NCBI GenBank assembly: GCA_038065235.1
Contig: JBBTRK010000006.1
Location: 3,255 to 67,254, forward strand
DNA: 64,000 nucleotides
Direction: 5' to 3'
DNA from: Patescibacteria group bacterium
GTDB taxonomy: Bacteria > Patescibacteriota > Patescibacteriia > PEXW01
Shown here: positions 13,085-62,593 of the stretch, piece after piece
Position numbering within the stretch: position 1 is the stretch's first letter
Layout of the letters: each line of letters opens with the position of its first letter
Position numbers and translations under genes: made by a program
Notes under the pieces: generated by a model
What the model was told of the DNA's origin: nothing
The model's database searches: none
Seen by the model: only the letters and a program-made list of their open reading frames with translations

Positions 13085-13401
13085 CTCGACGCGTCCCGCT
13101 ACGCGGGACTTGCTCGTGGTCTTCGACCAGCTATTGAGTAGCGCAAAGAATGTTAAGTTGCGATGCGTCGAGTGTCCCGAGCGCTTGTCGAGGGACAACC
13201 ACGCGAAGCCTCGCTTAACCCCACGACCGCGTGCTCGTCCCGCAGATATGGGACTGCGCGCCACGCTCGTAGGAACCCCGAATGGAACCGAACGGGTGCG
13301 ACAACCCCAAAATATAGTATGTTGCTTTTTTCCTACAAATGTGTTTTTTTGGTACACTAATACTCTATAGGTATTGTGGGCAATATAAAAACATCCCAGG
13401 T

Positions 13402-15045: not shown

Positions 15046-15056
15046 CACCACCACCC

Positions 15057-16112
15057 ATGCAGATTGGAGGCGCGAAGGAACGTGCGTACGTCGTTGAGAA
15101 CCTGGCCGTGCTCCTCGGCGCTGGCATGGATGTATTGTCTGCCGTCTCGGCTGTTGAGACGCAGGTGCGCTCGGTAGCGATGAAGCAGACGCTCGCGACG
15201 ATTCGAGAGGAACTCAGCAATGGCGCGGCAATTTGGCGCACACTCGATGCGGCGAAGATCCTGCCGAAGCGCGCGACGTACTTGGTGCGGTTGGGTGAAG
15301 ATTCTGGACGGCTCGCGGAGAATCTCACGCTCATCGCCAAGCAGCAAGAGAAAGACCGCCTGCTCACGTCAAAGATTCGATCCGCAATGGTGTACCCCAT
15401 TTTCGTTTTGGGTCTCACCATTGTGGTTGGCCTAGGAGTGTCGTGGTTCATCCTGCCGCGCTTGAGCACGGTATTTGGCTCGCTCAACGTCCACCTGCCA
15501 GCCATAACCAAAGCGCTCATTCAGTTTGGCGCATTTCTGCAGGACTGGGGAGCCATTGCTGTACCGGCAACTATCGTCGTCATCGGAGGGGCGATCATAG
15601 TTGCCTTTCGGCGGCCCGGGAGCAGAGCGGCACTGCAAGGGTTTGCTTTGAAAATCCCCGCGATACGGAATGTCGTGTTGGAGGTTGAGCTCACGCGGTT
15701 CGGCTTTGTCCTTGGCACGCTGCTGCAGGCTGGCTTGCCGGTCGTCGAGGCGGTGGAATCGCTAGAGCAGTCCTCGGCGATCGTGCAGTACAAGAAGCTC
15801 TACGCCAGGCTCCGTAGCGACATCGAGGATGGCGAATCATTCCACGCCAGCCTCCGCGCGTACCCCAAGAGCAATCAGCTCATTCCTATTCCGATCCAGG
15901 AACTTATTGCGACCGGTGAGCAATCTGGCAAGCTCGCCGAGATGCTGCTGCGCATCTCCGTCATCTACGAGCAGAAGACTGACCAGAGTACCAAGAACCT
16001 CTCTTCTATCCTGGAGCCAATTCTCCTCGTCATTGTTTGGCTGGGCGTGCTCGGCGTGGCTGTTGCCATCATCCTGCCCATTTACAGTCTCGTCGGGCAG
16101 TTCAACCCGTAG
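15057..16112 (+). CDS. pilC: Type IV pilus platform protein PilC / GspF family
   Basis: 351 aa with two T2SS-F repeats and 3 TM segments (MVYPIFVLGLTIVV...). Confidence 0.85.
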   Translation: MQIGGAKERAYVVENLAVLLGAGMDVLSAVSAVETQVRSVAMKQTLATIREELSNGAAIWRTLDAAKILPKRATYLVRLGEDSGRLAENLTLIAKQQEKDRLLTSKIRSAMVYPIFVLGLTIVVGLGVSWFILPRLSTVFGSLNVHLPAITKALIQFGAFLQDWGAIAVPATIVVIGGAIIVAFRRPGSRAALQGFALKIPAIRNVVLEVELTRFGFVLGTLLQAGLPVVEAVESLEQSSAIVQYKKLYARLRSDIEDGESFHASLRAYPKSNQLIPIPIQELIATGEQSGKLAEMLLRISVIYEQKTDQSTKNLSSILEPILLVIVWLGVLGVAVAIILPIYSLVGQFNP

Positions 16113-16160
16113 GTCATGCCCCGGCGCGGATTTATCCAGCACCACTTTGCAGACCACATA

Positions 16161-16631
16161 ATGCATAATTCTTCTCGACGCGTTGCCGCTCGTGACGTAC
16201 AAAGTGGTGCTGGATTTACCCTTATTGAAGTCCTTCTCTCGGTGGCTCTCATTGGGCTCATCGCCAGCATTGGCGCAGTGGTGTACCAGCAGTTGCAGAA
16301 CCGCAATGCCCTAGACGTCGCTGCGGTGACCGTGGCCACGCAGTACCGACGCGCACAAGCCTTGAGCCGCGCCGCAGACGCAGACACCACCTGGGGCGTG
16401 CGCGTGAATGCCGGCACACTCACTCTTTTCCAAGGCACCTCGTTCGCAACGCGTGTTTCCGCGTTTGACGAGGTATCCACACTCTCATCATCAATTACCC
16501 CGAGCGGCTTGGTGGAAGTTATTTTCGCCAAGCTCACGGGTTTGCCGCAGGCCACGGGCACGCTCACCCTCACCGGTCCGAACGACACGCGGACCCTCAC
16601 CCTCAATGCGCAAGGCACGGTCAGCTACTAG
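16161..16631 (+). CDS. Prepilin-type pseudopilin / minor pilin
   Basis: Class III signal ...SGAG|FTLIEVLLSVALIGLIASIGAVVY with Glu+5; start chosen at Met 16161 (alternative 16116). Confidence 0.7.
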   Translation: MHNSSRRVAARDVQSGAGFTLIEVLLSVALIGLIASIGAVVYQQLQNRNALDVAAVTVATQYRRAQALSRAADADTTWGVRVNAGTLTLFQGTSFATRVSAFDEVSTLSSSITPSGLVEVIFAKLTGLPQATGTLTLTGPNDTRTLTLNAQGTVSY

Positions 16632-18348
16632 CAAAGGTTTCTCCGTCGTCGAGGTGCTCCTCGCCGCATCGATTTTCTCGTTGCTCGTCACGGCACTGGT
16701 TGGTGCGTTCCTCTATGGCCAGGAATCGTCAGCGCTCGCCGGCGCCCGCGCCCGAGCCGGCCAGCTGGCTGATGAAGGTTTGGAAGCGAGCCGAAGCATT
16801 CGCGATGGGGCATTTACCAACCTCACCGATGGGGCGCATGGCTTGGCCGTCAGCGGCGGCGTGTGGACCTACAGCGGCACGCAGGATATTGCCGGTCAAT
16901 TTACACGAGCGGTAACCGTGAGTACCGTTGACGCAAACACGAAAACGCTCACCAGCACCGTCAGCTGGCAGCAGAATGCCCAGCGCACTGGGACAGCGAG
17001 CGCAACGACTCGGCTGACGAATTGGTCCGTGGCTGTCGCGGCACTTTTCCCGGATGGTCTGCTCGTCTATGGCGACGGCACGACCACGCCGAAGTACCGA
17101 ACCTACGCCACAAGCACGAATACATTCGGCGCCCAGACCGGCACGCTTGTCGCTACTTCTGGCCGAACCTTTACCCTACGTACGTCGCCCACGAAGACCG
17201 AGGCGATTGCTGGGTACGTGACCGCCGCTGGCGTACTCAACGTGTTGTGTTTCAATGGCACCACCTGGACAAATGATTGGTCGGTCACCGTTGGCGGCAC
17301 CGGCACCACGCGCCGTTTCGACATTGCTTACGAAACTGCGAGTGGCGATGTTATGGTGCTTTATAGCACGAACACGGCAACGACGAACGAGCTGGCGTAC
17401 CGGACGAAGTTGGGGAGCGCCGGCTGCGGTGCGGCGAACTGGGCAGCGGCGACGAACCTTAACCCTGTGCGCACCTCTGGCATCGTCCACTGGGTGAAAA
17501 TGGCGTGGGATAGGCGGGCTGGCCAGAATCTCATCACCGCCATTTGGGCGGATGCAAGTGCTGACCTCTCGGCCATGGTGTGGAGCGGCAGCGCGTGGGG
17601 CAACGAGCCGACCACGGCGATGAGCACAACCCTCGAAGTGGTTACTGCAGCACAGGATGTGGAAGATTTTGATGTGGATTACGAATCGCTGTCTGGTGAC
17701 GTTATGGTGGTGTGGTCTAATGCTGTTGTGGGTAATACCGTGCGGTACCGGGCGTGCACGGGTGGAACAGCTACCTGCACATGGAGCGCAATAACCACCC
17801 CGATATTTGCCGACGATGCAACGAATTTGGATATTTCGGCAAACCCCAATACTGACCAAATAGTTTTTGCCTCGATTGGCAATTTACAGAGCGACTTACA
17901 GCTTGGCTACTGGAGCGGTACCGCGTGGACGATTGCTACCAACGTCGATCAAACCGCCGCAACGCCACTTGCCGGGACAAAATTAGTGAGCACTGGCTGG
18001 CTCATCAATGGTGCTACAACGCGGAGCATTGTGGTTTACAACGATAGCGCAACTACGAATATTGGTTACTATGCCGGTAACCTGGGGGTCTTCACCGTGC
18101 AAGCAGATTTTGCCCCCACGCCAGTATTTGCAAATCCGCAAAAGTATTACCAGCTCGAGATGAACCCGTTGAGCAAAGACCAGCTCATGTTAAGCCTGTC
18201 GGATAACCTTAACGATTCATACAGCAAGCGTTTGCTAATGACCGCGGTACCCGCTTTCACCTGGACGAATGCCGATGGCGGGGCGCTGGTGACCACGCTT
18301 CCGCAAGCCATCAACAGCCCCTTCGCCTTTGCCTATAAGCGGTTTTAA
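16606..18348 (+). CDS. Large (about 580 aa) type IV pilin-like protein with extended Thr/Ala/Gly-rich C-terminal domain
   Basis: N-terminus MRKARSATSKG|FSVVEVLLAASIFSLLVTALVG (prepilin motif, Glu+5); the ORF-track start 16408 is an upstream out-of-context extension; overlaps previous gene by about 26 nt in a different frame. Confidence 0.65.
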   Translation: MRKARSATSKGFSVVEVLLAASIFSLLVTALVGAFLYGQESSALAGARARAGQLADEGLEASRSIRDGAFTNLTDGAHGLAVSGGVWTYSGTQDIAGQFTRAVTVSTVDANTKTLTSTVSWQQNAQRTGTASATTRLTNWSVAVAALFPDGLLVYGDGTTTPKYRTYATSTNTFGAQTGTLVATSGRTFTLRTSPTKTEAIAGYVTAAGVLNVLCFNGTTWTNDWSVTVGGTGTTRRFDIAYETASGDVMVLYSTNTATTNELAYRTKLGSAGCGAANWAAATNLNPVRTSGIVHWVKMAWDRRAGQNLITAIWADASADLSAMVWSGSAWGNEPTTAMSTTLEVVTAAQDVEDFDVDYESLSGDVMVVWSNAVVGNTVRYRACTGGTATCTWSAITTPIFADDATNLDISANPNTDQIVFASIGNLQSDLQLGYWSGTAWTIATNVDQTAATPLAGTKLVSTGWLINGATTRSIVVYNDSATTNIGYYAGNLGVFTVQADFAPTPVFANPQKYYQLEMNPLSKDQLMLSLSDNLNDSYSKRLLMTAVPAFTWTNADGGALVTTLPQAINSPFAFAYKRF

Positions 18349-18351
18349 CCC

Positions 18352-18864
18352 ATGCGCCGAACCATGCACCAGAAAGGTTTCACGCTAGTTGAGCTTCTAC
18401 TCTACGTTGCGATGACGACGATTATGGTTGGCACGATTTCGGTGTTCCTATTCATAATCTTGCAGGTACGGGTAAAGAACCAAGTTATTAATGAAGTAGA
18501 GCAGCAAGGCCAGCAAGTCGTGCAGCGCATAAATCAGGTGGTACGCAATGCCACCGGGATTACCGTACCGTCCATTGGTGTAAGCGGAGCCAGTACCACG
18601 CTTACCGTCACGCCAGCCGGAAACAGCCCCACAGTCTTCGACCTTTCCACCGGGGCGCTGCGCATTACCGAAGGTGCGGGCTCACCTATCGTCCTTACCA
18701 ACGCCCGCGTGACCGTTTCGGCGCTTACGTTTACCAATACCAGCCGCAGTGCCATATCCAAAGACCTCCGCGTAACCTTTACCCTCACGGCCGTGAATAG
18801 CAGCGGCCGCAACGAGTACGATTACACCAAGACCTTTACGACCTCTGCCCATGTCCGCCCCTAA
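18352..18864 (+). CDS. Prepilin-type pseudopilin / minor pilin
   Basis: MRRTMHQKG|FTLVELLLYVAMTTIMVGT. Confidence 0.7.
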   Translation: MRRTMHQKGFTLVELLLYVAMTTIMVGTISVFLFIILQVRVKNQVINEVEQQGQQVVQRINQVVRNATGITVPSIGVSGASTTLTVTPAGNSPTVFDLSTGALRITEGAGSPIVLTNARVTVSALTFTNTSRSAISKDLRVTFTLTAVNSSGRNEYDYTKTFTTSAHVRP

Positions 18865-19243
18865 GCCCAAAGGTTTTGTCACGCTCATGAGCGTCCTCAT
18901 CCTGGGGGCGGTCGGTGTTTCGGTGGTCGTTTCCCTCATCCAGCTGGGCTTAGGCAGCTCGCGGACCAGCTTTGCCACCGAGCAATCTATCCAGGCGCGC
19001 GGTCTCGCAGACGCGTGCGGGGAAGCAGCCTTGAGCACAATCCGGCTTACGCCAGCGTTTACAGGGACAACCCCCCTAACTTTTGGCTCTGGTACCTGCT
19101 CATTCACGGTAACGAATACCGGCGGGACAACCCGGCTCGTTGTTGCCAGTGGGACTGTTGGCACCATTCTCCGTCGAGTGAGCATTGTTGTCGCCACGGT
19201 CGCGCCAGTCACCCTTACGAGTTGGCAAGAGGTTGCGAACTAG
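18851..19243 (+). CDS. Pilin-like small protein (degenerate prepilin N-terminus)
   Basis: MSAPKPKGFVTLMSVLILGAVGVSVVVSL; hydrophobic N-terminal helix but no Glu+5; overlaps previous gene by 14 nt. Confidence 0.45.
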   Translation: MSAPKPKGFVTLMSVLILGAVGVSVVVSLIQLGLGSSRTSFATEQSIQARGLADACGEAALSTIRLTPAFTGTTPLTFGSGTCSFTVTNTGGTTRLVVASGTVGTILRRVSIVVATVAPVTLTSWQEVAN

Positions 19244-19290
19244 TCGCTTTGGCGTATACTGTACGTAGTTCACTCTTAATCCTAGGTCAT

Positions 19291-19749
19291 ATGCGCAGCA
19301 CTTCACGCGGTTTTACTCTCATCGAAATTCTGCTGGTCGTGGCGGCAATTGGCATCCTTGCCGGTATTGTTATTTTGGCAATTAACCCCAACAAGCAGCT
19401 GGGCGACACGAAGGACGCGCAGCGGAGCGCTGACGTGACCACCATTCTCAACGCGGTGTACCAGTACGCCATTGATAGTAACGGCGTTGCGCCGGCGACG
19501 ATTACCAACGGCACAGGGTGTGGCATAGCCACGCAAGAAGTCTGCAAGACCGGCGGCACCTGTACGGGGCTTACTGACCTGGGCGTGCTTACCACCAATG
19601 CCAAGTACCTTGTTGCCATGCCTACCGATCCAACGGGTGCATCCACCAACGGGGCTGGCTACGAAGTGTATAAGAACGCCACGACAAGCCGCATCACGGT
19701 TTGCGCGCCAGATGTGGAGCAGAGCGCTACAATATCCGTTACTCGGTAA
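19291..19749 (+). CDS. Type IV pilin, candidate major pilin (about 152 aa, Cys-containing C-terminal region)
   Basis: MRSTSRG|FTLIEILLVVAAIGILAGIVILAI; four Cys in C-terminal half; followed by strong hairpin. The ORF-track start 19015 is an N-terminal shadow extension. Confidence 0.7.
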   Translation: MRSTSRGFTLIEILLVVAAIGILAGIVILAINPNKQLGDTKDAQRSADVTTILNAVYQYAIDSNGVAPATITNGTGCGIATQEVCKTGGTCTGLTDLGVLTTNAKYLVAMPTDPTGASTNGAGYEVYKNATTSRITVCAPDVEQSATISVTR

Positions 19750-51790: not shown

Positions 51791-51873
51791 CATTCGTCAA
51801 TTCTTGACAATCTCCTACCGACCTGAAGGGTGATTTGCTATACTCCTACCACTTCATTCTTAACGAATACGCT

Positions 51874-53055
51874 ATGCGTAAGTTAACGTTTGCCAGTAGC
51901 ATCGGCGCGATTGCGCTGTTTGCCCTTGTTGGCTTTGGCCAACCCGCCAGAGCCACCGAGAAGCTAGAGTTAGAGCCAGTATCGAAGGTGAAGGTTCCTG
52001 GGACTTTCGTTACGGGAACATTGACTGCGATGAGTAGCGCGTCAGTGCCGGCGACGCTCACGGTGAAAGCTGGGGCGACCATTTACACGGCAGAGGTTAC
52101 ATCCGCGACGACGATTGTTCGGAGGTACAATGGCAGCACCGACCTGGGCGAGTTTCTGGTTGGCGATACCGTTGAAGTACGCGGCACACTCTCGAATGAC
52201 GTGGCGAATACGATTAGCGCAACGAAGTTAAAAAACGTTTCGATCCAGCGTGTTGGTGGGACGTTTAAGGGGAAAGTTGTTTCTCGGAACTGCGATGCAG
52301 GTTACTTTACCTTCAAGCCCGAAGGACGCGATGAGCAGTCGGTATACTTCACCGCGAACACGAAGTTCATTCGCGGGGGTGAGAAGATCAGCTGTGCCAG
52401 CCTCGTAGCGAACGAACGGGTAAAGGTCATTGGCCTGTGGCGGAAAGCAGATGCCCGCATTGACGCCGACCGGGTGATCGTCGATATGCGGACGATTAGC
52501 GGCACGATCAGCACGATCACGCTGACCAATGGTGGCTTACCCGCAACCTTGGTCATCGATCGGAAGGGGAAGGTTAAGAGCACTGCCTTCCAGGCCGCGA
52601 CGTCGGAGAGCAGCGAAACTACCACGGAGTCTTGGACGGTGAACATTACCAGCACCACGAAGCTGTACCGTAAGTACATGAAGATTGCGACGATTGAGGA
52701 AATGCTCGTTGGCGACAAAGTTGACGTTCGCGGAACAGTAGCTGAAGGGAACGTCATGAATGCCAGAGTGCTTCGCAACAACTCCCTCGTCATCAAGTAC
52801 GGCGATATGCAGGGCACCGTTCTTTCTGTCGATGCAGATGCGAAAACGTTCGTGCTGCGGACGAAGGAGAAGAAGCTAGGCGACGTTATCGTAACCGTGA
52901 CCGACGCCACAAAGTATGTGGACGAGAACGGCATGCGTGTATTCACTGACCTCACGGTCGGCGATAAGTTGAAGGTCCTCGGAACTTACAACTCGAGCAC
53001 CAAGAAGATTGCCGCAACCCGCGTCTTTTTCAAGGAAGCGCAAGAGACACTCTAG
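51874..53055 (+). CDS. Secreted repeat protein (signal peptide + at least 4 copies of a 60-aa beta-rich module ending ...VGD.V.V.G...)
   Basis: MRKLTFASSIGAIALFALVGFGQPARA signal; internal repeats TIVRRYNGSTDLGEFLVGDTVEVRGTL / KVIGLW / LVGDKVDVRGTV / TVGDKLKVLGTY. Confidence 0.55.
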   Translation: MRKLTFASSIGAIALFALVGFGQPARATEKLELEPVSKVKVPGTFVTGTLTAMSSASVPATLTVKAGATIYTAEVTSATTIVRRYNGSTDLGEFLVGDTVEVRGTLSNDVANTISATKLKNVSIQRVGGTFKGKVVSRNCDAGYFTFKPEGRDEQSVYFTANTKFIRGGEKISCASLVANERVKVIGLWRKADARIDADRVIVDMRTISGTISTITLTNGGLPATLVIDRKGKVKSTAFQAATSESSETTTESWTVNITSTTKLYRKYMKIATIEEMLVGDKVDVRGTVAEGNVMNARVLRNNSLVIKYGDMQGTVLSVDADAKTFVLRTKEKKLGDVIVTVTDATKYVDENGMRVFTDLTVGDKLKVLGTYNSSTKKIAATRVFFKEAQETL

Positions 53056-53104
53056 AGATTGGTTCGAAGAAAAGCGGCTCCGCGAGGAGCCGCTTTTTGT
53101 ATTT

Positions 53105-53196
53105 GTCACTGCGAATCCCTTAGCAGTGAGGTGAAGCAATCCCCCTGATACAACGGGATTGCCACGCCTCTCGATTACTCGAGGCCCGCAATGACA
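53105..53196. repeat. Structured palindromic intergenic repeat, subfamily 2 copy G
   Basis: GTCACTGCGAATCCCTTAGCAGTGAGGTGAAGCAATCCCCC...ACGGGATTGCCACGCC...CGCAATGACA. Confidence 0.65.
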
Positions 53197-53200
53197 ATAA

Positions 53201-56200
53201 TTACCGCGGAATCAGCCGGACCACGCTGGCGCCGAGTACGCGGCCCTTGCTGTAGGTAATCTTCTTAATGGTCTGGCGGCCGTCGCTGTTGGTGAAGGTC
53301 ATGTCGTAGGTGGCGTTCTTCAACTTACTCGTGGGCACGGTGACGAGCAGGCTCTTGGCGCTCTTCACCTGTACCTTGCTCGCCTTCACTGTGCCGACAG
53401 CAGCACTGACCTTGCTGGTAAAGTTTGTGCCGACAATTTCCAGTACCATGCTGCTGCCAGATTTGCTCTTGTACTTCACGCCGCTCACGGTGGGCTTCTT
53501 CTTCGCTGTACCCGTGACAGAGAATTTTGTGAGGTGCGTGGTGGTGAGCGTGGCAGTGTTGTCTTTGGTGTCCACTAAACCGGTGGCCCCATCGGTTGAC
53601 CAGGTCTCGGTCTGCGGGTCCCAGAATTTCGTGGCCAGGCCCTTCTCGCGCAGGCCGCTATTCACCACGGCACTGTCGGTGTAGGGCAACGTTATCGTGG
53701 CAGGCTTATCGAGGTTCTTCTTCTCATTGCCCGAGCTGTCGATCGCCTTCACTTCGTAAGCCAGCGACGCAGGCCGGTCAGACGTCGTCGGGTCGATATC
53801 AATCGTCGGCGTGACTGTGACGGAGACGGTGCCGCTGGTGCCCAAGGCAAATGGCGGCAAGGATACGGTTGTACCATCGGCCAAGCTAATAGCTAAGCCA
53901 TCATCCGCACTGGCAGACTTCGTGATCGGCCCGGGAATGGTTATACCCGAATCTTTGAGGGTCAGGTTCACGGTGTTTGCGCCAACCTTGGGGGTAACTT
54001 CGGAAACCTCGCTAGTGGTAAGTTTAGTGCCGCTGATATCCGTGACGACTACGTTCCATTTCTCGCCGCTGGTGACGTTCAAACTGTAGGTGCCAGTCGC
54101 ACTCACCGTGCCCGTGACTTGCGAACCGTCGTTGGAGTAGGCGGTGACCGTGCCGCCCTTTTCGGCCTTTGTACCAAACTTTACCGTACCTTGTAATGTA
54201 GCGTTGGTTGCTTCAAATTTGAAATTCGCAGTGGTCGTGCTGCTGCCCGAAACTTTCACGGCCTTGCCGTCGGGTGGTAGCTGGGTCTCGGCCACGGCTG
54301 GGGTTTCGCCGACGGTTACCAGGTACGTACCGTCAGGAACTTTGGCGGTGTACACCCCGCTATCATTCGTTTCTACAGTCACGGTCACAATATCGTTTGG
54401 GTTGGTGGCGGCATTATTCTCCAACGCCGTGCGGTTATCCAGGGTAACCAAGGCACGTTTTACCACTGCGCCGCTAGTGTCCGTAACGGCACCGGTAACC
54501 GTGTTATTCCCTTTGAATACCGTTAGGTTGCGGGCCACGCTCTGGCCGGCGGTCACGGTAACGCTATTTTGTCCGGCGGGTTTGTTTAGCAACGCAGCCG
54601 TGAGTTCTGGATTCTCAATGTCGTAGTCGTACAACCACGTTCCCGCAGCCAGCGGCAGGCTATACGTACCATCAGCCGCTACTGTTGTGCTGGTGAAATT
54701 CCCGTCAGCGTCCAAGGCCAAAATCTGTATATCCGAACCCGGGCTGGTCACCATTGTACCGTCTTGGAGTTTGAGGGCACCCGTCAGCGTTGCGTCATAT
54801 GCCCGGAGAGTCAGGTCCTGGGTGGCGGTACTGCCAGCCATGGTGACTTGTTTTTCCGACCCGCCCGCGTAATTAGCGCCTGGTGCGGCTTGCACCCCGA
54901 CGATTACCTTTGAGCCTGTGACTTCGGTTGAAGCAAAATCGAGGCTGAAAGTGCCGTCAACCACGGGGGCAGACACGCGGACTTTATTATTTATGGTACG
55001 GACATAGGCGCTGCCCACAAAGTCTGTGACTTTTGTGCCGGCGCTGTTGAGCACGTTGCCGGTAATCCCACGGTCAATCGTTTTCATCTTAATATTAAGA
55101 TCGCTCACGGTCTGACCATTGATGACGGTCGCTGTGGCTGGCGCTACTTGGGCGTACTGAGTTTTCCCGGTCGGGGCATTCAGGCCAATACTCCAGGTGC
55201 CGGCACCGACGGTAATATCAAAGGCGCCAGTGGGATCGGTATTCACATTCACGCGCTCGCTCCCACCTTCCCGAACTGCCAGCAGCGAAACATTAGAAAG
55301 CGCTGCGCCAGAGGTTGAGGTAACTTTACCTTTGAGGTGTGCGCTGTTGACTGATGCGGTAACTGTACCTAAGTCCACGTTCCCGCCTTCGGTCATGACG
55401 AAGGTCGTGGCAGCCGGGTCAAAAGACTTGCCTTGCAAATCCGTGTGGAATGCCGAGAGGGAATAAATACCAGGTGTCAGGTACACACTCACCACCGAAT
55501 CAGCTTGGCGGACTTTGCGCACTGTACCCACGCCGTCGGCGCGGCGGATGTCCACATCTGCCACAAAACTGCTCGTGGTTAGGTTGCTGCCATCGCTATT
55601 TAGCAAACGCACGGTGACTTTACCGGTAGCGGGGGTCACCACAAAGTTCAAGGTCTGGGTTTCGGTGGTGCTGTCTGCAGCAAAATCCACGCGGGTCGGT
55701 GCGACTTCCGAAATCCAAGTCGGGGTGTATTCCGAAAGGTTGACCACCGGCTGCACAAACCAGGTGCCACCCACCATAGTCCCGCTGTACACCCCACTCG
55801 CGTTGGTGCGCACATTCGAGAGTCGGCTCGCCCCGGTTATATTGTACGGGTCGATATTAATGTCGGCATCGGTAATAATTTTACCGGTAGTATCGGTTAC
55901 CGTACCGGTAATCGTCTTCGACGTTTGGGTGAACGTGAAATTAACCGCTGTTTGCGACGTACCCGAGTAGGTAAAATTATAGGAACCGTTACCCGAACGA
56001 TTGTAACCGGTGGGGGTACGCGCCTCTACCACGTAAGGAGTACCGTTGGTCAAGTCGTTATTGAAGGCGTAGGTACCATTTGCGGCCGTGGTGGTGTTCA
56101 CGCTAAAAATTCCGTCCGGTGTATGTAGCTCAATTGTGACGCTTGCCATCGGCGTACCGGTAGTAGTGCTTACCGTGCCAGTCACGACATTCACCACCGC

Positions 56201-56299
56201 CCGGGCGGGCTGGATGACGCCGGGAAAAGACAAAAGCATGGCAGCAACCATGAGACTGGCTGTACCACGGAGAGATCGTCGGAGCGTGCGGGTACGCAT
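53201..56299 (-). CDS. Giant (1032 aa) secreted/surface protein built of tandem CarboxypepD_reg-like (transthyretin/Cna-B-type) beta-sandwich repeats; putative adhesin
   Basis: Signal peptide MRTRTLRRSLRGTASLMVAAMLLSFPGVIQPARA; repeated motif (I/V)TG(T/N/A)V.....G.......V.L.; Thr/Asn/Gly/Val-rich. Confidence 0.7.
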   Translation of the reverse strand: MRTRTLRRSLRGTASLMVAAMLLSFPGVIQPARAVVNVVTGTVSTTTGTPMASVTIELHTPDGIFSVNTTTAANGTYAFNNDLTNGTPYVVEARTPTGYNRSGNGSYNFTYSGTSQTAVNFTFTQTSKTITGTVTDTTGKIITDADINIDPYNITGASRLSNVRTNASGVYSGTMVGGTWFVQPVVNLSEYTPTWISEVAPTRVDFAADSTTETQTLNFVVTPATGKVTVRLLNSDGSNLTTSSFVADVDIRRADGVGTVRKVRQADSVVSVYLTPGIYSLSAFHTDLQGKSFDPAATTFVMTEGGNVDLGTVTASVNSAHLKGKVTSTSGAALSNVSLLAVREGGSERVNVNTDPTGAFDITVGAGTWSIGLNAPTGKTQYAQVAPATATVINGQTVSDLNIKMKTIDRGITGNVLNSAGTKVTDFVGSAYVRTINNKVRVSAPVVDGTFSLDFASTEVTGSKVIVGVQAAPGANYAGGSEKQVTMAGSTATQDLTLRAYDATLTGALKLQDGTMVTSPGSDIQILALDADGNFTSTTVAADGTYSLPLAAGTWLYDYDIENPELTAALLNKPAGQNSVTVTAGQSVARNLTVFKGNNTVTGAVTDTSGAVVKRALVTLDNRTALENNAATNPNDIVTVTVETNDSGVYTAKVPDGTYLVTVGETPAVAETQLPPDGKAVKVSGSSTTTANFKFEATNATLQGTVKFGTKAEKGGTVTAYSNDGSQVTGTVSATGTYSLNVTSGEKWNVVVTDISGTKLTTSEVSEVTPKVGANTVNLTLKDSGITIPGPITKSASADDGLAISLADGTTVSLPPFALGTSGTVSVTVTPTIDIDPTTSDRPASLAYEVKAIDSSGNEKKNLDKPATITLPYTDSAVVNSGLREKGLATKFWDPQTETWSTDGATGLVDTKDNTATLTTTHLTKFSVTGTAKKKPTVSGVKYKSKSGSSMVLEIVGTNFTSKVSAAVGTVKASKVQVKSAKSLLVTVPTSKLKNATYDMTFTNSDGRQTIKKITYSKGRVLGASVVRLIPR

Positions 56300-56371
56300 A
56301 CGCTTTGGGGTTAGTTTGAGAGGTCAATCGAGTATACCACCTGCACCCCTGCAGTGCGCTATACTGCACGC

Positions 56372-58549
56372 ATGCTTCGGAGGAAAGGCACGACACTCAT
56401 CGAGACGCTCATCGGCATTGCCATCCTGGCATTCGTCATGACCTTTGCGTTCGCGATGTTCTCTTTGAGCACCGAGAAGCTCGCCCGCTCGAAATTTCGT
56501 GTACTGGCAACAGCACTGGCCACCGAGCAGGTAGAAATTATTCGGAATGTGCCGTTCGATCAGGTGGGGACTCAAGCGCCGACGTGCGAAGTAACCGGGC
56601 CTTTTTTGCGTACCAGTACCGTCACCCGTTCAAACGTCAACTTTACGGTTGACACCTGCGTGAAGTGGGTCGATGACCCGTTCGACAAGCTGGTAAGTGA
56701 TACGCCCTGGGATACCGTACCGACTGACTACAAGCTTGTAGAAATTTCGGTGAGCTGGCCCGGCGGTGATTCCCCGGTTAAGTTCACCACGACGGTGACG
56801 CCGAAGGGTTTGGAAGCGCCGTCAAACACGGGGTCGTTCCTAATCACCGTGTACGATGCGTCGGTGTTGCCTGTTCCCGAGGCAGATGTTACGGTCACGA
56901 ATACAATATTGGTGCCAGCCGTGAACATCGTTTCGAAAACCGATTTGCAAGGAAAATTGCAGCTTTTGGGTTTGGCGCCGGATGCGGGCAGCAACTATCA
57001 TATCGTCGTAACTAAGTCTGGCTACACCACGGATCAGACCGAGGCAGCGACTGCCCAGATACCCAACCCAGTTCTACAGGATTTCTCGTTATCCGCCGGG
57101 GGCATTGTGGACGTGGCTTTTAAAATTGACCGCGTGAGTAGTCTTGCTTTCACCACGGTCGGCGAAACATGTACGGCCATTCCGAGTGTTAATTTCAACC
57201 TCAAGGGGCAGAAATTAAAAGGGAACCCACCGCCAGACCCGGTGCTGAAGTACGATCAGAATTTTACGACCAGCAACCCCCTCGGCCAAGTAACCGCCAG
57301 TAACTTGGGGTGGGATCAGTACACATTGCTCTTGAGTGGCACGAGTAGGAACATCGCCGGCATTATTCCTCCAGCGAGCCTCAACGTGCTACCGAACACG
57401 AATCCACTTGTACAGCTGGTGCTGACGAGTAGCTACTCGGCTAACTCTCTTTTGGCGAGCGTGAAGGATACAAATACGAATCTGCCCGTGAGCGGTGCGA
57501 CGATTACTGTTACGGGTGTCGGCACCAAGGTCACTGGCCAAGGGGCTTGGTCGCAGACTGACTGGTCTGGCGGGATAGACCCAGCAGCGCTGTTCACCGA
57601 CGCGACGAAGACGAAGTTCGCTACCGAGGACGGGAACATCGATTGGCTTACCACACCGGGGCAAACAACGTTGCAGAAGGCCGCCTCAGCAGATACGGTA
57701 GTGGAGAGTTTTGACGCAACGACATATAAAGACCCCTCCATGACTGCGGTCTGGGATACTTCTGCCGGTGAAGTCCGCCTCCCGCAAACCAGCGGGCAGT
57801 ACGACGCGAGTGCAACCGGCCAGAGCCTGAAGCTACCTGTTGTTGCGGGGAAAATTGTTCGGGCTACGCTCACGGCAACGGATCAAACGAACGGCCAGAG
57901 TATCCAGTACTTCCTGGCCGCGGATGGCGTTACTTTCGAGGCGGTCACCCCCGGGGTCGCGTACGATTTCGTGGCAACCGGTGACGACCTACGGTTCAAA
58001 ATCCAGCTCGGGACGACTAATCCGGCCATGACGCCGACCGTTGCTAATATTTCTATAGCAGTAACCGTCGAAGCGTACGCCATTAGCGGTCATCTTACTT
58101 CCTCAACCTTCGATACGGGGACGGTTAGTAATTTTATTGATCTTACTTGGAATCCGCAGAGCCAGGGCGGGAATGTTGGGGCAGACCCCGTTCGTTTCCA
58201 GCTGGCGACGAATGATGACAACGCCACATGGAATTTTGTTGGATATGACGGCACTGCCGCTACGTACTTCACCACCAGCGGCACAACCGTGCCAGCCGCC
58301 CTCCAGGGCAAACGGTACGTGCGATACAAAATGTATTTACAAACGTCAGACCGAAAATTTACTCCAGGCGTCACGGATGTTAGTATCGGGTACACCACGG
58401 GCTGTACCCCGCCGGGACAAGCTTACTTCCCTGCCTTGAGTGTTCAGACGTACAGCGTCACCATTACGAAAGCAGGCTACATTGATTTGGTAGTTGACGT
58501 CGATGTCAACGGGAACCTGCAGAATACATTTAATCTCACGCCGAACTAA
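56372..58549 (+). CDS. Large (about 725 aa) pseudopilin-like protein with CarboxypepD_reg-like C-terminal domains
   Basis: N-terminus MLRRKG|TTLIETLIGIAILAFVMTFAFA (prepilin-like, Glu+5). Confidence 0.6.
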   Translation: MLRRKGTTLIETLIGIAILAFVMTFAFAMFSLSTEKLARSKFRVLATALATEQVEIIRNVPFDQVGTQAPTCEVTGPFLRTSTVTRSNVNFTVDTCVKWVDDPFDKLVSDTPWDTVPTDYKLVEISVSWPGGDSPVKFTTTVTPKGLEAPSNTGSFLITVYDASVLPVPEADVTVTNTILVPAVNIVSKTDLQGKLQLLGLAPDAGSNYHIVVTKSGYTTDQTEAATAQIPNPVLQDFSLSAGGIVDVAFKIDRVSSLAFTTVGETCTAIPSVNFNLKGQKLKGNPPPDPVLKYDQNFTTSNPLGQVTASNLGWDQYTLLLSGTSRNIAGIIPPASLNVLPNTNPLVQLVLTSSYSANSLLASVKDTNTNLPVSGATITVTGVGTKVTGQGAWSQTDWSGGIDPAALFTDATKTKFATEDGNIDWLTTPGQTTLQKAASADTVVESFDATTYKDPSMTAVWDTSAGEVRLPQTSGQYDASATGQSLKLPVVAGKIVRATLTATDQTNGQSIQYFLAADGVTFEAVTPGVAYDFVATGDDLRFKIQLGTTNPAMTPTVANISIAVTVEAYAISGHLTSSTFDTGTVSNFIDLTWNPQSQGGNVGADPVRFQLATNDDNATWNFVGYDGTAATYFTTSGTTVPAALQGKRYVRYKMYLQTSDRKFTPGVTDVSIGYTTGCTPPGQAYFPALSVQTYSVTITKAGYIDLVVDVDVNGNLQNTFNLTPN

Positions 58550-58579
58550 CGTATGCTAGGATCACGCCGAAAAAACATA

Positions 58580-59182
58580 ATGAAAAGTGCTGCGGGGTTC
58601 ACCCTCGTAGAATTACTTATAACCGCAAGCATCCTGGCCATAATTGGAACGTTGCTGGGCGTATTCGCTTCGGCGGGTATTCGCTCTTGGGGCCAGAATC
58701 GGGAGCAGGTAGAAGCGCAAGAGAGTGCTCGGGCAGCTTTGGCACGCATGACGAAAACAATCCGGAAAGCAGCCTCGGCGGATAATGGCGCGTATACCAT
58801 TTCGACCGCAGCAGCGCAGACATTGACCTTCTACGCCAACGTTGACAGCGATACGAACCGCGAGCAGGTGCGCTTCTTCCTGCAAGGGACAAATTTGAAG
58901 ATTGGTATCATCCAGCCTGTGGGTCAGCCTGCCACGTACCCCGCGGGGAATGAAGCCGTGAGTGTCCTGGCGGGCGGCATTCAGAATAGTGCGAACCCAA
59001 TTTTCCTCTACTACGATACCAATTACACTGGCACGCAAGCGGCACTCACCCAACCCGTGAACCTGCAGGATGTCCGTTTAGTACACATTACTTTGTCCAT
59101 TGATACTGACACTACGAAGCCCCCGACGGCAATCGATCTTCAGACCAGCACCTCATTCCGAAACTTGAAGAATAACCTGTAA
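58580..59182 (+). CDS. Prepilin-type pseudopilin
   Basis: MKSAAG|FTLVELLITASILAIIGTLLG. Confidence 0.7.
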   Translation: MKSAAGFTLVELLITASILAIIGTLLGVFASAGIRSWGQNREQVEAQESARAALARMTKTIRKAASADNGAYTISTAAAQTLTFYANVDSDTNREQVRFFLQGTNLKIGIIQPVGQPATYPAGNEAVSVLAGGIQNSANPIFLYYDTNYTGTQAALTQPVNLQDVRLVHITLSIDTDTTKPPTAIDLQTSTSFRNLKNNL

Positions 59183-59191
59183 GCTTTACGA

Positions 59192-60916
59192 ATGAGTATA
59201 CCAACCCGCCAACCCACAAACTCCCACCAACCAGTTCCCTATCCCAAAGGAACTATGCTTGTAAGTATTCTCGTCGTCACTGGCCTTTTTGTGACCCTAG
59301 GCATGCTCGCCCTACAGTTCGTCATCACGCAAAATGCCGCCAGCCGGTTCCGCGTGGATCGGGAGCGCGCCATCCAGATCGCCGAGGCCGGGGTGGACTA
59401 TTACCGTTGGCATTTGGCACATGTACCAGATGACTATCAGGATGGTACGGGTGCGGCGGGGCCGTATGTACACACTTATAAAGACGCGACCGGCAACACC
59501 CTGGGCACGTTCAGCCTGGAAATTACCCCGCCGCCTTCTGGTTCCACGGTGGTGACCATAAAATCCACCGGGCAAATCACTAATCGCCCAACGAGCAGTC
59601 GGACTGTTACGGTTCAACAAGGGATACCCTCATTCACCAAGTGGGCTGTAGTGGCGAATGCCGATATCCGCTTTGGCGTGGGCACCGAGGTGTTCGGGCC
59701 CATTCATTCTAACGGTGGTATTCGCTTCGACGGCCTGGCACACAACCTGGTCAGCTCGTACCGTTACAGCTACGACGACCCCGATCACACCGGCAGCAAT
59801 GAACTGGGCGTGCACACGCACGTTACACCCCTCGATGCCATTCCTCCGGTAACGCCACCCGCAACCATTGCGAGTCGGCCGGATGTTTTTGCGGTTGGGC
59901 GGCAGGTGCAGGCGAACTTCGTGGATTTCAATAGCATCAGCGTTGACATGCAGGCGATGAAAACAAAAGCCTCGGCCAACGGTATTTACGTTTTGCCCTC
60001 AGGCGGGCAGGGTTACCACATTACCTTCCGCCAGGATGGCAAGGTGGACATGCGCATCGTCAATACCCAGTTGCGTTGCCAGTACAGGTCTGGCGCACAA
60101 TGGCGTGACTATGGGTACTGCTCGAACAATTACAATTTGACCTGCACGCAGAACAGTAACTGCACCAGCGGCGCAACCTGCATCCAGTCCAGTCATTCCA
60201 TTGGCACCCGCGCGGCGGACCAGGCGGCCTTCACCTACCAGAGTGCCTCATCACTCGGCGTCCCAATCCCAGCGAATGGTCTCATATTCATTGAAGATGA
60301 CGCCTGGGTAGACGGCGTGGTGCCTAATGGTACGCGTCTTACCCTGGTGGCAGCCAAAGAACCGCTCGCGTCAGGTTTGGCGAATATTTACCTGGACAAA
60401 GATTTAACCTATGGCCGTTATTGTAACAATGCCACCCAGAATGCTTGTTCGCTCGATAGCGAATGTACCGGTGGGGCAACGTGCGTGGATGTATCAAATG
60501 GTACGTCAGCAGTGGGTCTTATAACCCAGCAAAACATCCTGGTTGGGTACTTCAGCGAGAATAACCTACGCCTAGATGCCGCACTCATCGCGCAGAACGG
60601 TCGGGTGGGTCGGCCTAATTTTGGTGCCAGCGGTTCCAGCTATCAACTCTACCCTACGGGTAGTCCGTTGCCGAACGGTGGAGGCGGCGAGAATAGTTGT
60701 GATGACTTTAGATCGCGAAGTCTTATTACCACTTTTGGCGCAATTGCCACCAATCAGCGCTACGGTTTTGCCTGGACTGGCGGCAGTTTTTGCAATAGCT
60801 CCAGTTCTGGCTACTGTGACCGCACCCTAAACTTTGATGCGAATCTCACGTACGCCCCGCCACCAGATTTTCCCACCACTGGGCAGTACGAAGCCTTGAG
60901 TTGGGAGGAGCAGTAG
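59192..60916 (+). CDS. Large pilus-associated protein (PilX/PilY-like candidate; N-terminal hydrophobic helix without Glu+5), Cys-rich C-terminal region
   Basis: KGTMLVSILVVTGLFVTLGMLALQFVITQ; multiple CxxxC-like motifs (CTQNSNCTSGATC, CSLDSECTGGATC). Confidence 0.5.
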   Translation: MSIPTRQPTNSHQPVPYPKGTMLVSILVVTGLFVTLGMLALQFVITQNAASRFRVDRERAIQIAEAGVDYYRWHLAHVPDDYQDGTGAAGPYVHTYKDATGNTLGTFSLEITPPPSGSTVVTIKSTGQITNRPTSSRTVTVQQGIPSFTKWAVVANADIRFGVGTEVFGPIHSNGGIRFDGLAHNLVSSYRYSYDDPDHTGSNELGVHTHVTPLDAIPPVTPPATIASRPDVFAVGRQVQANFVDFNSISVDMQAMKTKASANGIYVLPSGGQGYHITFRQDGKVDMRIVNTQLRCQYRSGAQWRDYGYCSNNYNLTCTQNSNCTSGATCIQSSHSIGTRAADQAAFTYQSASSLGVPIPANGLIFIEDDAWVDGVVPNGTRLTLVAAKEPLASGLANIYLDKDLTYGRYCNNATQNACSLDSECTGGATCVDVSNGTSAVGLITQQNILVGYFSENNLRLDAALIAQNGRVGRPNFGASGSSYQLYPTGSPLPNGGGGENSCDDFRSRSLITTFGAIATNQRYGFAWTGGSFCNSSSSGYCDRTLNFDANLTYAPPPDFPTTGQYEALSWEEQ

Positions 60917-60932
60917 GGGGTTCCACTTGATT

Positions 60933-61045
60933 GTCATTGCGAGCCCGAGCCCTGCGAGGGTGCGGCAATCCCGTTTGGACAAAGCGCAGTTCCATTTAAA
61001 CGAGATTGCTTCGTCGTCCGCACCAGTGGGACGTGGCATTGACAG
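60933..61045. repeat. Structured palindromic intergenic repeat, subfamily 2 copy H
   Basis: GTCATTGCGAGCCCGAGCCCTGCGAGGGTGCGGCAATCCCG...CGAGATTGCTTCGTCGTCCGCACCAGTGGGACGTGGCATTGACAG. Confidence 0.7.
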
Positions 61046-61210
61046 CTGTTACAGCCTGTTATAGGCTATGAATGTTAAGTCTCCTACGCCTGTCCCCTCT
61101 GGGGACAGTGTGTAGGATTTCTGTTAGAATGCGATTATGCAACGTGTACAGGTTTAACTTAGAGATATATACGTCAGTTATTTGCATCAACCTATGATAA
61201 AACTTCTGGA

Positions 61211-61627: not shown

Positions 61628-61659
61628 TACTGTATTTTCATTCGCTAATCCCCGTAAGA

Positions 61660-62577: not shown

Positions 62578-62593
62578 GACAACTGAACAAAAA

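Follow-up and report, generated by a model that had tools for sequence, protein, structure and literature searches.

Which pilus do three neighboring pilin genes serve when they lie far from any assembly gene, and what part of it do they form? In the window (the whole 64-kb stretch of DNA that was analyzed), genes for prepilin-like proteins of 725, 200 and 574 aa, hereafter the trio, are transcribed divergently from a gene for a 1032-aa repeat protein. The sequence-only reading had seen here a self-contained host-attachment module, with giant pilins as the stalk, the 1032-aa protein as the adhesin, and the PilB/PilC pair at 13.4 kb as the assembly machinery. Our analysis confirmed the five ORFs described in that reading (Table 1) but led to another interpretation: the trio is likely a single operon that encodes the core minor pilins of the type IV pilus of a Patescibacterium, and these proteins most likely start and cap the pilus as its priming and tip complex, with small major pilins making up the stalk.

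Table 1. Features of the trio locus and of the second pilus cluster, called type A, with positions in the window
Feature	Position	Strand	Basis or remarks
4xDUF5666 secreted protein, 393 aa	51874..53055	+	Four DUF5666 stretches, E 3.5e-18 (Pfam)
Hairpin, 13-bp stem with T-runs	53069..53098	.	Intergenic; flanked by the DUF5666 and 1032-aa genes, which converge
1032-aa Sec-signal surface or secreted protein	53201..56299	-	ORF; Sec-type leader MRTRTLRRSLRGTASLMVAAMLLSFPGVIQPARA; Pfam
Giant minor pilin, 725 aa	56372..58549	+	ORF; leader RRKG/TTLIE; CarboxypepD_reg E 1.7e-7; N_methyl E 6e-4 (Pfam)
Small minor pilin, 209 aa (200 aa from ATG at 58580)	58553..59182	+	Leader ...KSAAG/FTLVE
Glu5-less cap pilin, 574 aa, PilX/GspK/ComZ-like	59192..60916	+	Leader PKG/TMLVS, Ser at +5
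Type A cluster, ComG-like in gene content	13339..19749	+	PilB, PilC, five pilins
Type A PilB	13339-15045	+	
Type A PilC	15057-16112	+	
Type A pilin	16116-16631	+	
Type A pilin, ~575 aa	about 16609-18348	+	
Type A pilin	18352-18864	+	
Type A Glu5-less cap, 130 aa	18851-19243	+	
Type A putative major pilin, 152 aa	19291-19749	+	

The N-terminal prepilin cleavage context survived closer alignment of all three families. The first two pilins carry both Gly-1 and Glu+5, with Glu+5 in 50/50 sequences and Gly-1 in 45 of the 46 ungapped sequences of the 725-aa family, and the motif [GA]xxxxE in 79/79 sequences of the 200-aa family. The third has Gly-1 (62/65 in its family alignment), and Glu occurs at +5 in none of its relatives. 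The 200/209-aa protein matched the N_methyl family of Pfam with 26.2 bits (cut-off, 21.2) and also exceeded the cut-off of TIGR02532, and the Pfam search with the 574-aa protein gave no hit. Each trio protein has exactly one hydrophobic segment, which is N-terminal, and the genes are spaced by 3 and 9 nt. Gly, Ala, Ser and Thr make up 36-38% of the trio proteins versus 26.9% of PilB, a high content also reported for exposed pilins in TM7x (PMC11623550).

We compared 82 related loci, of which 80 were the best-scoring of at least 581, so that the linkage frequencies may be biased to a few classes. An uninterrupted trio with conserved gene order was present in 74/82 loci, and contig ends or the selection of ORFs truncated the remainder; the 725-aa homologue directly preceded the other two genes in 77/82, and the 200-aa homologue was followed immediately by the 574-aa homologue in 78/82. 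More than 2764 homologues of the 574-aa protein were found, in Patescibacteria only (1990 cluster representatives at E<=1e-3), some of them named PilX N-terminal domain protein or PF14341. Identity between classes was 35-63% in this family, similar to that of PilC (31-66%). Where at least 4 kb of upstream sequence was available (68 loci), pilB and/or pilC immediately preceded the trio on the same strand in 41 cases, and pilM-N-O often followed or preceded the set (L007, L023, L027, L028, L038, L060, L081 and L009). A gene for a small major pilin, 39-42% identical to the 152-aa pilin of the window, comes right after the trio in L048 and L066. Thus, what had been described as an ATPase-less, private adhesin module is an order-conserved minor-pilin set found across Patescibacteria, and its separation from pilB-pilC in the window is a lineage-specific rearrangement. 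As seen in an assembly of 99.8% identity, pilT lies ~0.9 kb past the window end, ~4 kb beyond the trio, and a position 3.5-6.3 kb downstream of the trio is conserved throughout the clade of the window.

The predicted folds are in line with a role at the filament tip. In the AF2 model of the 574-aa protein (pLDDT 90.3, pTM 0.85), a long alpha1 helix (19-77) precedes a pilin sheet into which a large beta-solenoid with loops rich in Cys is inserted. Its best PDB match in Foldseek was Thermus ComZ (6QVI, E 1.7e-10, prob 1.0), followed by ice-binding beta-solenoids and PilA2, which are also the relatives reported for ComZ itself (PMC6561018). The likeness is structural only, as the family profile found none of the PDB sequences, and global TM-scores were low (0.24-0.27), as can occur with multi-domain chains. 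ComZ, which likewise combines a pilin fold with a beta-solenoid insertion, has been proposed to cap the pilus, its bulk being argued to fit only at the tip (PMC6561018). Beta-solenoid PilX proteins also belong to cyanobacterial core sets, and a Glu5-less subunit caps the filament (bioRxiv 10.64898/2026.02.12.705559). The 725-aa protein is predicted to be a pilin with a chain of Ig-like domains: its AF2 model (pLDDT 86.3) starts with the class III leader, the alpha1 helix and a small pilin sheet, and continues with tandem Ig-like/CarboxypepD_reg sandwiches, a jelly-roll-like module and a C-terminal sandwich. Foldseek matched this model to TIE, PitA, SpaA and BcpA. Residues 438-565 form an insertion, and ~600-aa members of the family do without it. 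Names such as PilV-like and PilW-like for the 725-aa and 200-aa proteins would reflect gene position and size only.

By analogy with GspI/J/K, PilV/W/X and ComZ/PilA2, the trio proteins would insert into the membrane through their N-terminal helices, and prepilin peptidase would cut after Gly-1; such processing is to be expected of the 725-aa and 200-aa pilins and is possible in the 574-aa protein. The three helices would bundle into a small initiation complex with the Glu5-less protein on top as a cap, its pilin fold carrying the solenoid. Because a PilB/PilC motor would then add small major pilins underneath, the trio would end up at the distal tip, where the solenoid and the Ig-like chain and jelly-roll module of the 725-aa protein may offer a contact surface; PilT would retract the pilus. 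Since Glu+5 is missing, the 574-aa pilin would terminate rather than extend the filament. This, together with the ComZ-like solenoid and the existence of small major pilins, in the window and after the trio in relatives, speaks against giant pilins as the stalk. The proposal of a pilus tip module is thus retained insofar as the trio plausibly sits at the tip, and abandoned as regards a new, dedicated attachment system.

Which motor would serve the trio in this genome is a separate matter. The sole PilB and PilC of the window are those of type A and none lies near the trio, as the sequence-only reading had stated; the region from 48 to 64 kb contains no PilB, PilC or prepilin peptidase, and the whole window neither prepilin peptidase nor PilMNO. 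The type A PilB and PilC belong to a different paralogue clade, the PilB being separate from all trio-adjacent PilBs, and come with their own complete set of five pilins including a cap, an architecture shared by L084 and L085, so that assembly of the trio by this motor is not supported. It is nevertheless possible, if doubtful, that the lineage lost the PilB/PilC/PilMNO that usually accompany the trio, whose PilB/PilC type is absent from the window, and uses the trio as an alternative priming set for the type A motor. With similar reserve we consider that one machine may draw on two minor-pilin sets and so build filaments of two types, for which there is a cyanobacterial precedent, proposed for Synechocystis (bioRxiv 10.64898/2026.02.12.705559). 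In favor of such sharing, type A provides the only PilB/PilC within the window, the two clusters share contigs in relatives (P0249 with L003, 49,298 bp; P0245 with P0124, 100,217 bp), and the major pilins that follow the trio in L048 and L066 are related to the type A-linked one. Yet the window represents 64 kb of a 1.09-Mb genome, the retention of pilT near the trio suggests a complete retractile system elsewhere, and in 49/49 related loci with a full-length PilB this protein fell outside type A, in the other clade or on an intermediate branch.

As to the ligand of the proposed tip complex, the trio might be a putative DNA receptor on a DNA-uptake pilus, as proposed for Thermus ComZ/PilA2, and would then serve the nucleotide scavenging on which Patescibacteria depend. 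Several observations are consistent with this: the best structural match is a DNA-binding tip pilin, the conservation of the 574-aa family is unusually high for a protein at the tip and would fit a universal ligand, and 29 Paceibacteria loci keep the order pilB-pilC-trio-TIM-PGK-...-recJ-rnhA-comEC on one strand. Moreover, DNA scavenging has been proposed for CPR bacteria, in which ComEC is enriched (PMC6744442). However, the synteny with comEC probably goes back to one inherited arrangement, and glycolytic genes intervene; the proteins are mildly acidic, with a median pI of 5.6 in the 574-aa family and 4.5 in the 725-aa family; the similarity to ComZ is too low for its lysines to be mapped onto the 574-aa protein; cyanobacterial solenoid PilX proteins occur in both competence-type and motility-type sets (bioRxiv 10.64898/2026.02.12.705559); and the type A cluster, with its ComG-like gene content, is no less plausible as a DNA-uptake system. 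We therefore regard DNA as an unlikely, though not negligible, choice of ligand.

The self-contained attachment module fared considerably worse. The organism does have a small genome, the near-identical contig being 1.09 Mb long, and the 1032-aa protein is rich in beta-sandwiches: Pfam detected four CarboxypepD_reg domains (E 8.9e-22), SpaA/SdrD_B/NOMO-like domains and a C-terminal TIG domain, and an iterative self-search found 7 copies of an ~85-aa repeat (residues 39-123, 130-219, 322-405, 412-499 [weak], 505-594, 601-695 and 702-782). It has 7-8 CarboxypepD_reg-like repeats, and the earlier figure of about 10 beta-sandwich domains is a fair estimate. CarboxypepD_reg-like domains are common to this protein and the 725-aa pilin, and only 72 bp separate their divergent genes. 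A 1032-aa homologue adjoins the trio, however, in just 4/82 loci (L002, L005, L006 and L008), all of the window's own clade, and is absent beside it in the other 78, including L003 and L004 of the same clade. The protein has a Sec signal and no LPXTG motif, membrane anchor or pilin helix. Its gene is a lineage-specific neighbour outside the conserved module, and so is that of the adjoining secreted protein, whose four-copy module is DUF5666 and which starts with a signal-like hydrophobic segment: phmmer found DUF5666 homologues flanking the trio in 7/82 loci, of which one, in L048, was an unrelated match, and the gene lies beside the trio only in the clade of the window. The hairpin between the two neighbour genes is probably a terminator that splits them into different transcripts. 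As the 1032-aa protein is only a local neighbour, and with the objections to stalk and motor given above, the trio is better seen as an ordinary pilus part, and a dedicated attachment system is improbable. It is scarcely credible that the trio is an orphaned, nonfunctional leftover of a broken operon, despite the >40 kb upstream that separate it from any assembly genes within the window, given that none of the three ORFs is broken or truncated, that their spacing is retained, that the window sequences keep every invariant family residue (in 43 and 40 invariant columns), and that the arrangement is kept with intact genes across a clade spanning 55-85% identity.

The core minor-pilin set that we propose resembles GspI/J/K and PilV/W/X in comprising contiguous, low-abundance pilins with one bulky, Glu5-less cap. 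More than one such set per genome is possible, and the window has two (16.1-19.2 kb and 56.4-60.9 kb). Unlike four-member core sets, the trio shows no evident GspH/FimU-type linker; one of its Glu5-bearing members is a giant with Ig-like and jelly-roll modules, and most relatives have the set between pilC and pilM and not as an operon of its own. With the ComZ/PilA2 system of Thermus thermophilus (6QVI, 6QVF; PMC6561018) it shares a protein whose model aligns to ComZ over its whole length, with a long N-terminal helix and a GspK-like sheet split by an ice-binding-protein-like beta-solenoid, encoded by a gene that adjoins small pilin genes and, in some relatives, immediately precedes a major pilin gene, as comZ lies beside pilA4. 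The 574-aa protein differs from ComZ in its Cys-rich loops of variable length and in having no detectable sequence similarity to it, and the system differs in its modular pilin partner of 600-790 aa and its monoderm host without a secretin; DNA binding is a feature of Thermus ComZ and putative for the 574-aa protein.

Within the Patescibacteria, a close parallel is Saccharibacteria TM7x (PMC11623550), which also has two pilus gene sets (T4P-1 and T4P-2), a pilin-only locus apart from its ATPase (locus three), and a pilT associated with one system. Its largest minor pilins, PilX1 and PilX2, lack a recognisable PilD signal and have been proposed as tip adhesins; compared by description, they contain a jelly-roll and a beta-propeller, not the beta-solenoid of the trio cap. 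Pilins were described there as poorly conserved across Patescibacteria, in contrast to the between-class identities of the trio (35-63%). The type A cluster, for its part, resembles Firmicutes ComG (comGA-GG) in having an ATPase, a platform protein and five pilins including a Glu5-less one, and no PilMNO. NCBIfam matches to ComGD, ComGE and ComGC were weak, all far below the family cut-offs, and type A departs from ComG in that its major pilin comes last, not first, and one of its pilins has about 575 aa.

All five ORFs named by the sequence-only reading were present, and the three pilin-like genes among them (725, 200 and 574 aa, hereafter the trio) are tightly spaced, with gaps of 3 and 9 nt and a 72-bp spacer between the 725-aa gene and the 1032-aa gene. 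Each trio protein has one hydrophobic segment, located at the N terminus. The 725-aa and 200-aa proteins carry the class III signal claimed for them, i.e., a basic leader, Gly at position -1, Glu as the fifth mature residue (Glu5) and a hydrophobic helix of approximately 20 residues. The N terminus of the 574-aa protein is also pilin-like, without Glu5, as is typical of cap subunits.

Features of the window relevant to the pilin genes, by position (a slash in a motif marks the prepilin cleavage point)
Feature	Position	Strand	Remarks
230-aa HTH_23 protein and tRNA-Gly	12328-13084		Directly upstream of pilB
PilB/PilC	13339-16112	+	
171-aa pilin	16116-16631	+	AG/FTLIE; easily missed
~575-aa pilin	Start near 16609, inside ORF 16408-18348	+	KG/FSVVE; easily missed
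170-aa pilin	18352-18864	+	
130-aa Glu5-less cap	18851-19243	+	PKG/FVTLM; easily missed
152-aa pilin	19291-19749	+	
Tyrosine recombinase (Phage_integrase)	40060-41137		Ends 35 bp before tRNA-Arg(tct)
Low-GC 2-kb bin	44000-46000		43.6% GC versus ~55% elsewhere
557-aa multi-pass membrane protein	50117-51790		No Pfam/NCBIfam match
DUF5666 protein, 393 aa	51874-53055	+	Signal-like N terminus; four DUF5666 modules, Pfam E 3.5e-18
Hairpin, 13-bp stem	53069-53098		Separates the convergent DUF5666 and 1032-aa genes
1032-aa protein	53201-56299	-	Sec-type leader; four CarboxypepD_reg stretches, SpaA/SdrD_B/NOMO-like matches, C-terminal TIG (Pfam)
725-aa pilin	56372-58549	+	RRKG/TTLIE; CarboxypepD_reg E 1.7e-7 (Pfam)
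Small pilin, 209 aa (200 aa from second ATG)	58553-59182	+	AAG/FTLVE; above N_methyl cut-off
574-aa pilin	59192-60916	+	PKG/TMLVS
Thioredoxin reductase	61660-62577		Just downstream of the trio in the window's clade

Alignment of each family preserved the cleavage context. Glu5 was found in all 50 aligned relatives of the 725-aa protein and the motif [GA]xxxxE in 79/79 relatives of the 200-aa protein, while the 574-aa family has Gly-1 in 62 of 65 members and Met, Pro, Leu, Ile, Gln or Ser at +5, Glu occurring in none. Against N_methyl (PF07963, cut-off 21.2 bits) the 200-aa protein scored 26.2 bits and the 725-aa protein 19.7, just under the cut-off; precomputed matches place PF07963 on many members of the latter's family. 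The 200-aa protein also exceeded the TIGR02532 cut-off (19.6 versus 16.3), and its matches to GspH were weak and confined to the N terminus (E 9.6e-4, 19 bits versus 80). The 574-aa protein matched neither PF07963 nor TIGR02532 and had no Pfam match at E≤0.1, PilX_N (PF14341) included; PF14341 is found on about 10 of 120 listed homologues, several of which are named 'PilX N-terminal domain-containing'. All three proteins are enriched in Gly, Ala, Ser and Thr (36-38% versus 26.9% in PilB), in agreement with exposure at the surface, for which the same argument has been made with TM7x pilins (PMC11623550). Among those window ORFs that were scanned, none encodes a Peptidase_A24 (prepilin peptidase). 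Base composition is even over the region holding the trio and its neighbours. A promoter scan of 51.7-61.7 kb returned 8 matches, versus 6.8 ± 2.4 in shuffled sequences, none of them in the 72-bp divergent spacer, and Rfam and tRNA scans detected five tRNAs and nothing else.

The 574-aa family has Cys-rich loops of highly variable length (2-34 Cys per protein; residues ~296-330 and ~410-435 in the window protein), and one NCBI record of the family bears the name 'dickkopf-related'. In the window's clade the trio is followed by the thioredoxin reductase gene and by a VKOR gene (L002:14729-15190 in one relative's locus; L083:16704-17168 in a near-identical ENA contig), both of which may relate to disulfide formation in this family.

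The structure of the 574-aa protein was predicted with AF2 from a 71-sequence alignment (pLDDT 90.3, pTM 0.85). The model has residues 19-77 in one long helix, followed by a small sheet, numerous short strands at regular spacing and C-terminal strands that rejoin the sheet, i.e., a predicted pilin fold with a large triangular beta-solenoid in the sheet. In a Foldseek search of the PDB its first match was ComZ of Thermus thermophilus (6QVI; E 1.7e-10, probability 1.0, ~630 aligned columns), followed by ice-binding beta-solenoid proteins and, weakly, PilA2 (6QVF); global TM-scores to PDB matches were low, at 0.24-0.27. ComZ is described as GspK-like in its pilin fold, with a triangular beta-solenoid insert for which only the pilus tip has room, and its reported structural relatives are those of the 574-aa model (PMC6561018). 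The profile of the 71-member family did not retrieve ComZ from all PDB sequences, the best hit being unrelated (E 0.053) and the rest noise, with beta-trefoil designs at E>0.05. The predicted relation between the 574-aa protein and ComZ is thus one of architecture, not of demonstrable homology.

In the 725-aa model (AF2, pLDDT 86.3) the pilin helix and its sheet lead into tandem beta-sandwiches, a jelly-roll-like module predicted with very high confidence and one last sandwich; in the PDB it matched the multi-Ig proteins TIE, PitA, SpaA and BcpA. Residues 438-565 (~128 residues) form a very confidently predicted beta-module insertion that forms of 700-790 aa have and the ~600-aa forms, which are common in Paceibacteria, lack, so that the giant-pilin family has two architectural variants.

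The trio proved to be widely conserved. More than 2764 homologues of the 574-aa protein were found among the candidates scored, a profile search with its family yielded 1990 cluster representatives at E≤1e-3, and all homologues of the three pilins and of PilB came from Patescibacteria (CPR) assemblies. We mapped the window proteins onto 82 loci: 80 from species-representative genomes with 10-kb flanks (the best 80 of at least 581) and two more. In 74 of them the three genes are contiguous, with order and strand unchanged, the other loci being cut by contig ends or ORF selection; the conserved block holds just three pilin genes and no fourth, GspH/FimU-type linker pilin. The sequence-only reading had named loss of the cleavage context on closer alignment and lack of co-conservation as grounds for doubting it; both were checked, and as cleavage context and co-conservation were retained, the outcome favours genuine pilins.

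Gene order in these relatives accounts for the missing ATPase. At least 4 kb of sequence upstream of the trio was available for 68 loci. Among these, pilB and/or pilC lie directly upstream on the same strand in 41 and elsewhere in the locus in 7; neither is found in 20 loci, 7 of which belong to the window's own clade. The pilMNO genes adjoin the trio in at least 17 loci, with the order pilB-pilC-trio-pilM-pilN-pilO in L007, L023, L027, L028, L038, L060 and L081 and pilB-pilC-pilMNO-x-trio in Kerfeldbacteria (L009, L010, L041 and L080). In L048 and L066 the trio is directly followed by small pilins that share 39-42% identity with the 152-aa pilin of the window. Linkage to pilB, pilC and pilMNO is therefore a feature of the relatives that is broken in the window itself, and the lack of an ATPase, previously taken as an unusual trait, is by gene order a lineage-specific rearrangement of a trio that normally sits in the middle of the main pilus operon.

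Two further arrangements were observed. L048 has an insertion between the giant and the small pilin, the gene (L048:7627-9321) of a 564-aa protein that combines a Sec signal with a C-terminal membrane anchor, showing that the block tolerates insertion of a surface-protein gene. In 29 Paceibacteria loci (e.g., L046:4300-18414, L043, L054, L059 and L068) the order pilB-pilC-trio-TIM-PGK-(x)-recJ-RNase H (rnhA)-comEC occurs on one strand, which puts the pilus operon approximately 5 kb or less from the gene of the DNA-uptake channel.

The 1032-aa protein, with seven copies of an ~85-aa repeat detected by iterative self-search, had been proposed as the adhesin partnered with the trio. Its homologues flank the trio solely in L002, L005, L006 and L008 among the 82 loci. 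The gene is missing from L003 and L004, yet these belong to the same clade (574-aa proteins 70% identical) and share with the window the 557-aa and DUF5666 genes on the upstream side as well as trxB on the downstream side. The DUF5666 and 557-aa genes are themselves confined beside the trio to this clade, and a 57% identical relative (L001, 1.08-Mb contig) has unrelated genes upstream of the trio. Such a distribution is consistent with synteny inherited by recent descent, with one slot that varies, and not with functional partnership, and the proposed partnership was abandoned: the giant repeat protein beside the trio should not be read as a pilus part. NCBIfam has no family for the 574-aa, 1032-aa, DUF5666 or 557-aa proteins. 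The 557-aa gene accompanies the DUF5666 gene upstream of the trio in L002-L005 and L008.

Other surface systems were compared with the region. A sortase-anchored pilus or MSCRAMM adhesin was rejected for the 1032-aa protein, which shares only the CnaB/SpaA-like fold with these: an LPxT[GASN] motif is lacking throughout its sequence, and no hydrophobic stretch follows the signal peptide. A PilY1/PilC-type tip adhesin, a non-pilin with a C-terminal beta-propeller, was likewise rejected, as neither PilY1 nor a beta-propeller occurs among the best 50 Foldseek matches listed for either model or among the region's Pfam matches. The Pam pili of CPR bacteria, considered as a possible identity for the Sec-signal neighbours, are formed by the Ig-like pilins PamA/PamB through donor-strand exchange, from a pam operon with PamC/PamD chaperones, and Pam pilins were placed mainly in Saccharimonadia and Microgenomatia (bioRxiv 10.64898/2026.03.03.709456).

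The near-identical contig L083 (ENA ERZ1286166 contig_2308) is 99.8% identical to window positions 47241-64000, and its 1,087,894 bp point to a genome of approximately 1.1 Mb. It carries 19 indels that disrupt genes, and indels have split its 1032-aa, 725-aa, 574-aa and pilT genes into fragments. Some TPA_asm records with this operon (L005, L007, L015, L024 and others) carry the label 'uncultured Gammaproteobacteria' or 'Saccharibacteria', which is probably wrong. Within the window, the tyrosine recombinase and the low-GC bin may mark a small integrated element.

The window's PilB and PilC belong to a separate cluster with its own five pilins (type A, 13339-19749), which has no PilMNO; the same architecture without pilMNO occurs in two similar clusters, L084 and L085. 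PilBs adjacent to a trio are 46-75% identical to one another and 34-41% identical to the window PilB; the corresponding values for PilC are 31-66% and 26-31%. In a neighbour-joining tree the window PilB falls in a separate clade from trio-linked PilBs. These identities and the separate clade indicate that type A is a second, self-contained ComG-like system and that the trio's usual motor type is absent from the window. The idea that the window PilB is a fast-evolving orthologue of trio-linked PilB was rejected on account of its 57-61% identical homologues in many CPR lineages and by its own clade. The HTH_23 protein encoded upstream may be a local regulator of the type-A cluster.

A trio-type pilB-pilC-pilMNO set may lie elsewhere in the genome, beyond the 64-kb window. 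TM7x has a locus of pilins alone that relies on machinery encoded at another place in its genome (PMC11623550), so separation as such is not unusual. That the trio now primes filaments on the type-A motor seems doubtful, if conceivable. The region is not wholly without a pilus ATPase, as a conserved pilT (TIGR01420, 438 bits in L006) lies 3.5-6.3 kb downstream of the trio throughout the clade (L002-L006 and L008), at 84-95% identity; in L083 it spans positions 17648-18689, equivalent to ~64.9-65.9 kb, just past the window end.

Two Glu5 pilins and a Glu5-less solenoid pilin, encoded inside a pilus operon, lead us to regard the trio as most likely, by analogy, the priming/tip complex of a type IV pilus. 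In type II secretion systems (T2SS) and in type IVa pili, a complex of three or four minor pilins, joined via their N-terminal helices, primes polymerisation and ends at the tip; a Glu5-less subunit (GspK, PilX) caps this complex, and cyanobacterial core sets include beta-solenoid PilX proteins likened to ComZ (bioRxiv 10.64898/2026.02.12.705559). Similarly, the three minor pilins would associate by their N-terminal helices and prime polymerisation, capped by the 574-aa solenoid pilin, and the small major pilin would make up the shaft, leaving the solenoid and the Ig/jelly-roll arm as the exposed contact surface. We infer the complex, its position and its ligand from the pilin signals, gene order, linkage and predicted folds. 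The earlier proposal that the giant pilins form the stalk does not hold up.

As to the ligand, the modular Ig/jelly-roll arm of the 725-aa pilin, with the lectin-like tip pilins of TM7x as a parallel, suggests a device for adhesion to a host or surface. Capture of DNA at the tip is unlikely, even though the cap matches ComZ in structure, is highly conserved (35-63% between classes) and is encoded in the comEC-linked order kept in the 29 Paceibacteria loci: that synteny is probably a single inherited event, the family is mildly acidic, and the ComG-like type-A cluster is an equally good candidate for DNA uptake. We give little credence to a broader reading, in which the trio, with its ComZ-like solenoid cap and giant modular pilin, would serve non-Saccharibacteria Patescibacteria as a universal contact device, here uncoupled from its own motor and priming on the ComG-like one to give two pilus types. 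Because the cap is conserved as strongly as PilC, it would then recognise a universal ligand (extracellular DNA or a common envelope polymer) rather than a receptor specific to the host.

Type IV pili are near-universal in CPR (PMC6744442), both pilin-only loci and large Glu5-less tip pilins have been reported for Saccharibacteria (PMC11623550), cap pilins with a solenoid occur in Thermus and cyanobacteria, and databases already name trio-family proteins as prepilin-type or PilX-N-domain proteins. In the searchable literature we found no description of the trio as a conserved unit across Patescibacteria, of its ComZ-like cap, or of a split of PilB/PilC into two clades that each have a minor-pilin set, and nothing of relevance on ComZ or solenoid pilins in connection with Patescibacteria.

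The strongest candidates for the means by which ultrasmall episymbionts locate a host and acquire DNA are type IV pili, whose tip proteins have been studied in Saccharibacteria alone. A single, well-conserved set of three putative tip genes is common to many other Patescibacteria, the predicted cap resembling the Thermus DNA-receptor pilin ComZ, and these genomes contain two paralogous PilB/PilC systems, each with minor pilins of its own. The soluble solenoid domain and the jelly-roll module thus offer defined, widely applicable targets for DNA- or glycan-binding tests.

Priming/tip complex as it most likely is, the trio resembles the GspK/PilX-capped minor-pilin sets in its Glu5-less cap member but differs from them in having three genes rather than four, without a GspH/FimU linker. 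With Thermus ComZ, the 574-aa model shares a pilin fold with an inserted beta-solenoid, whereas their sequences have no detectable similarity. A parallel in genome organization is TM7x (PMC11623550), where large Glu5-less tip pilins and pilin-only loci have been described, and the window trio likewise stands apart from its motor.
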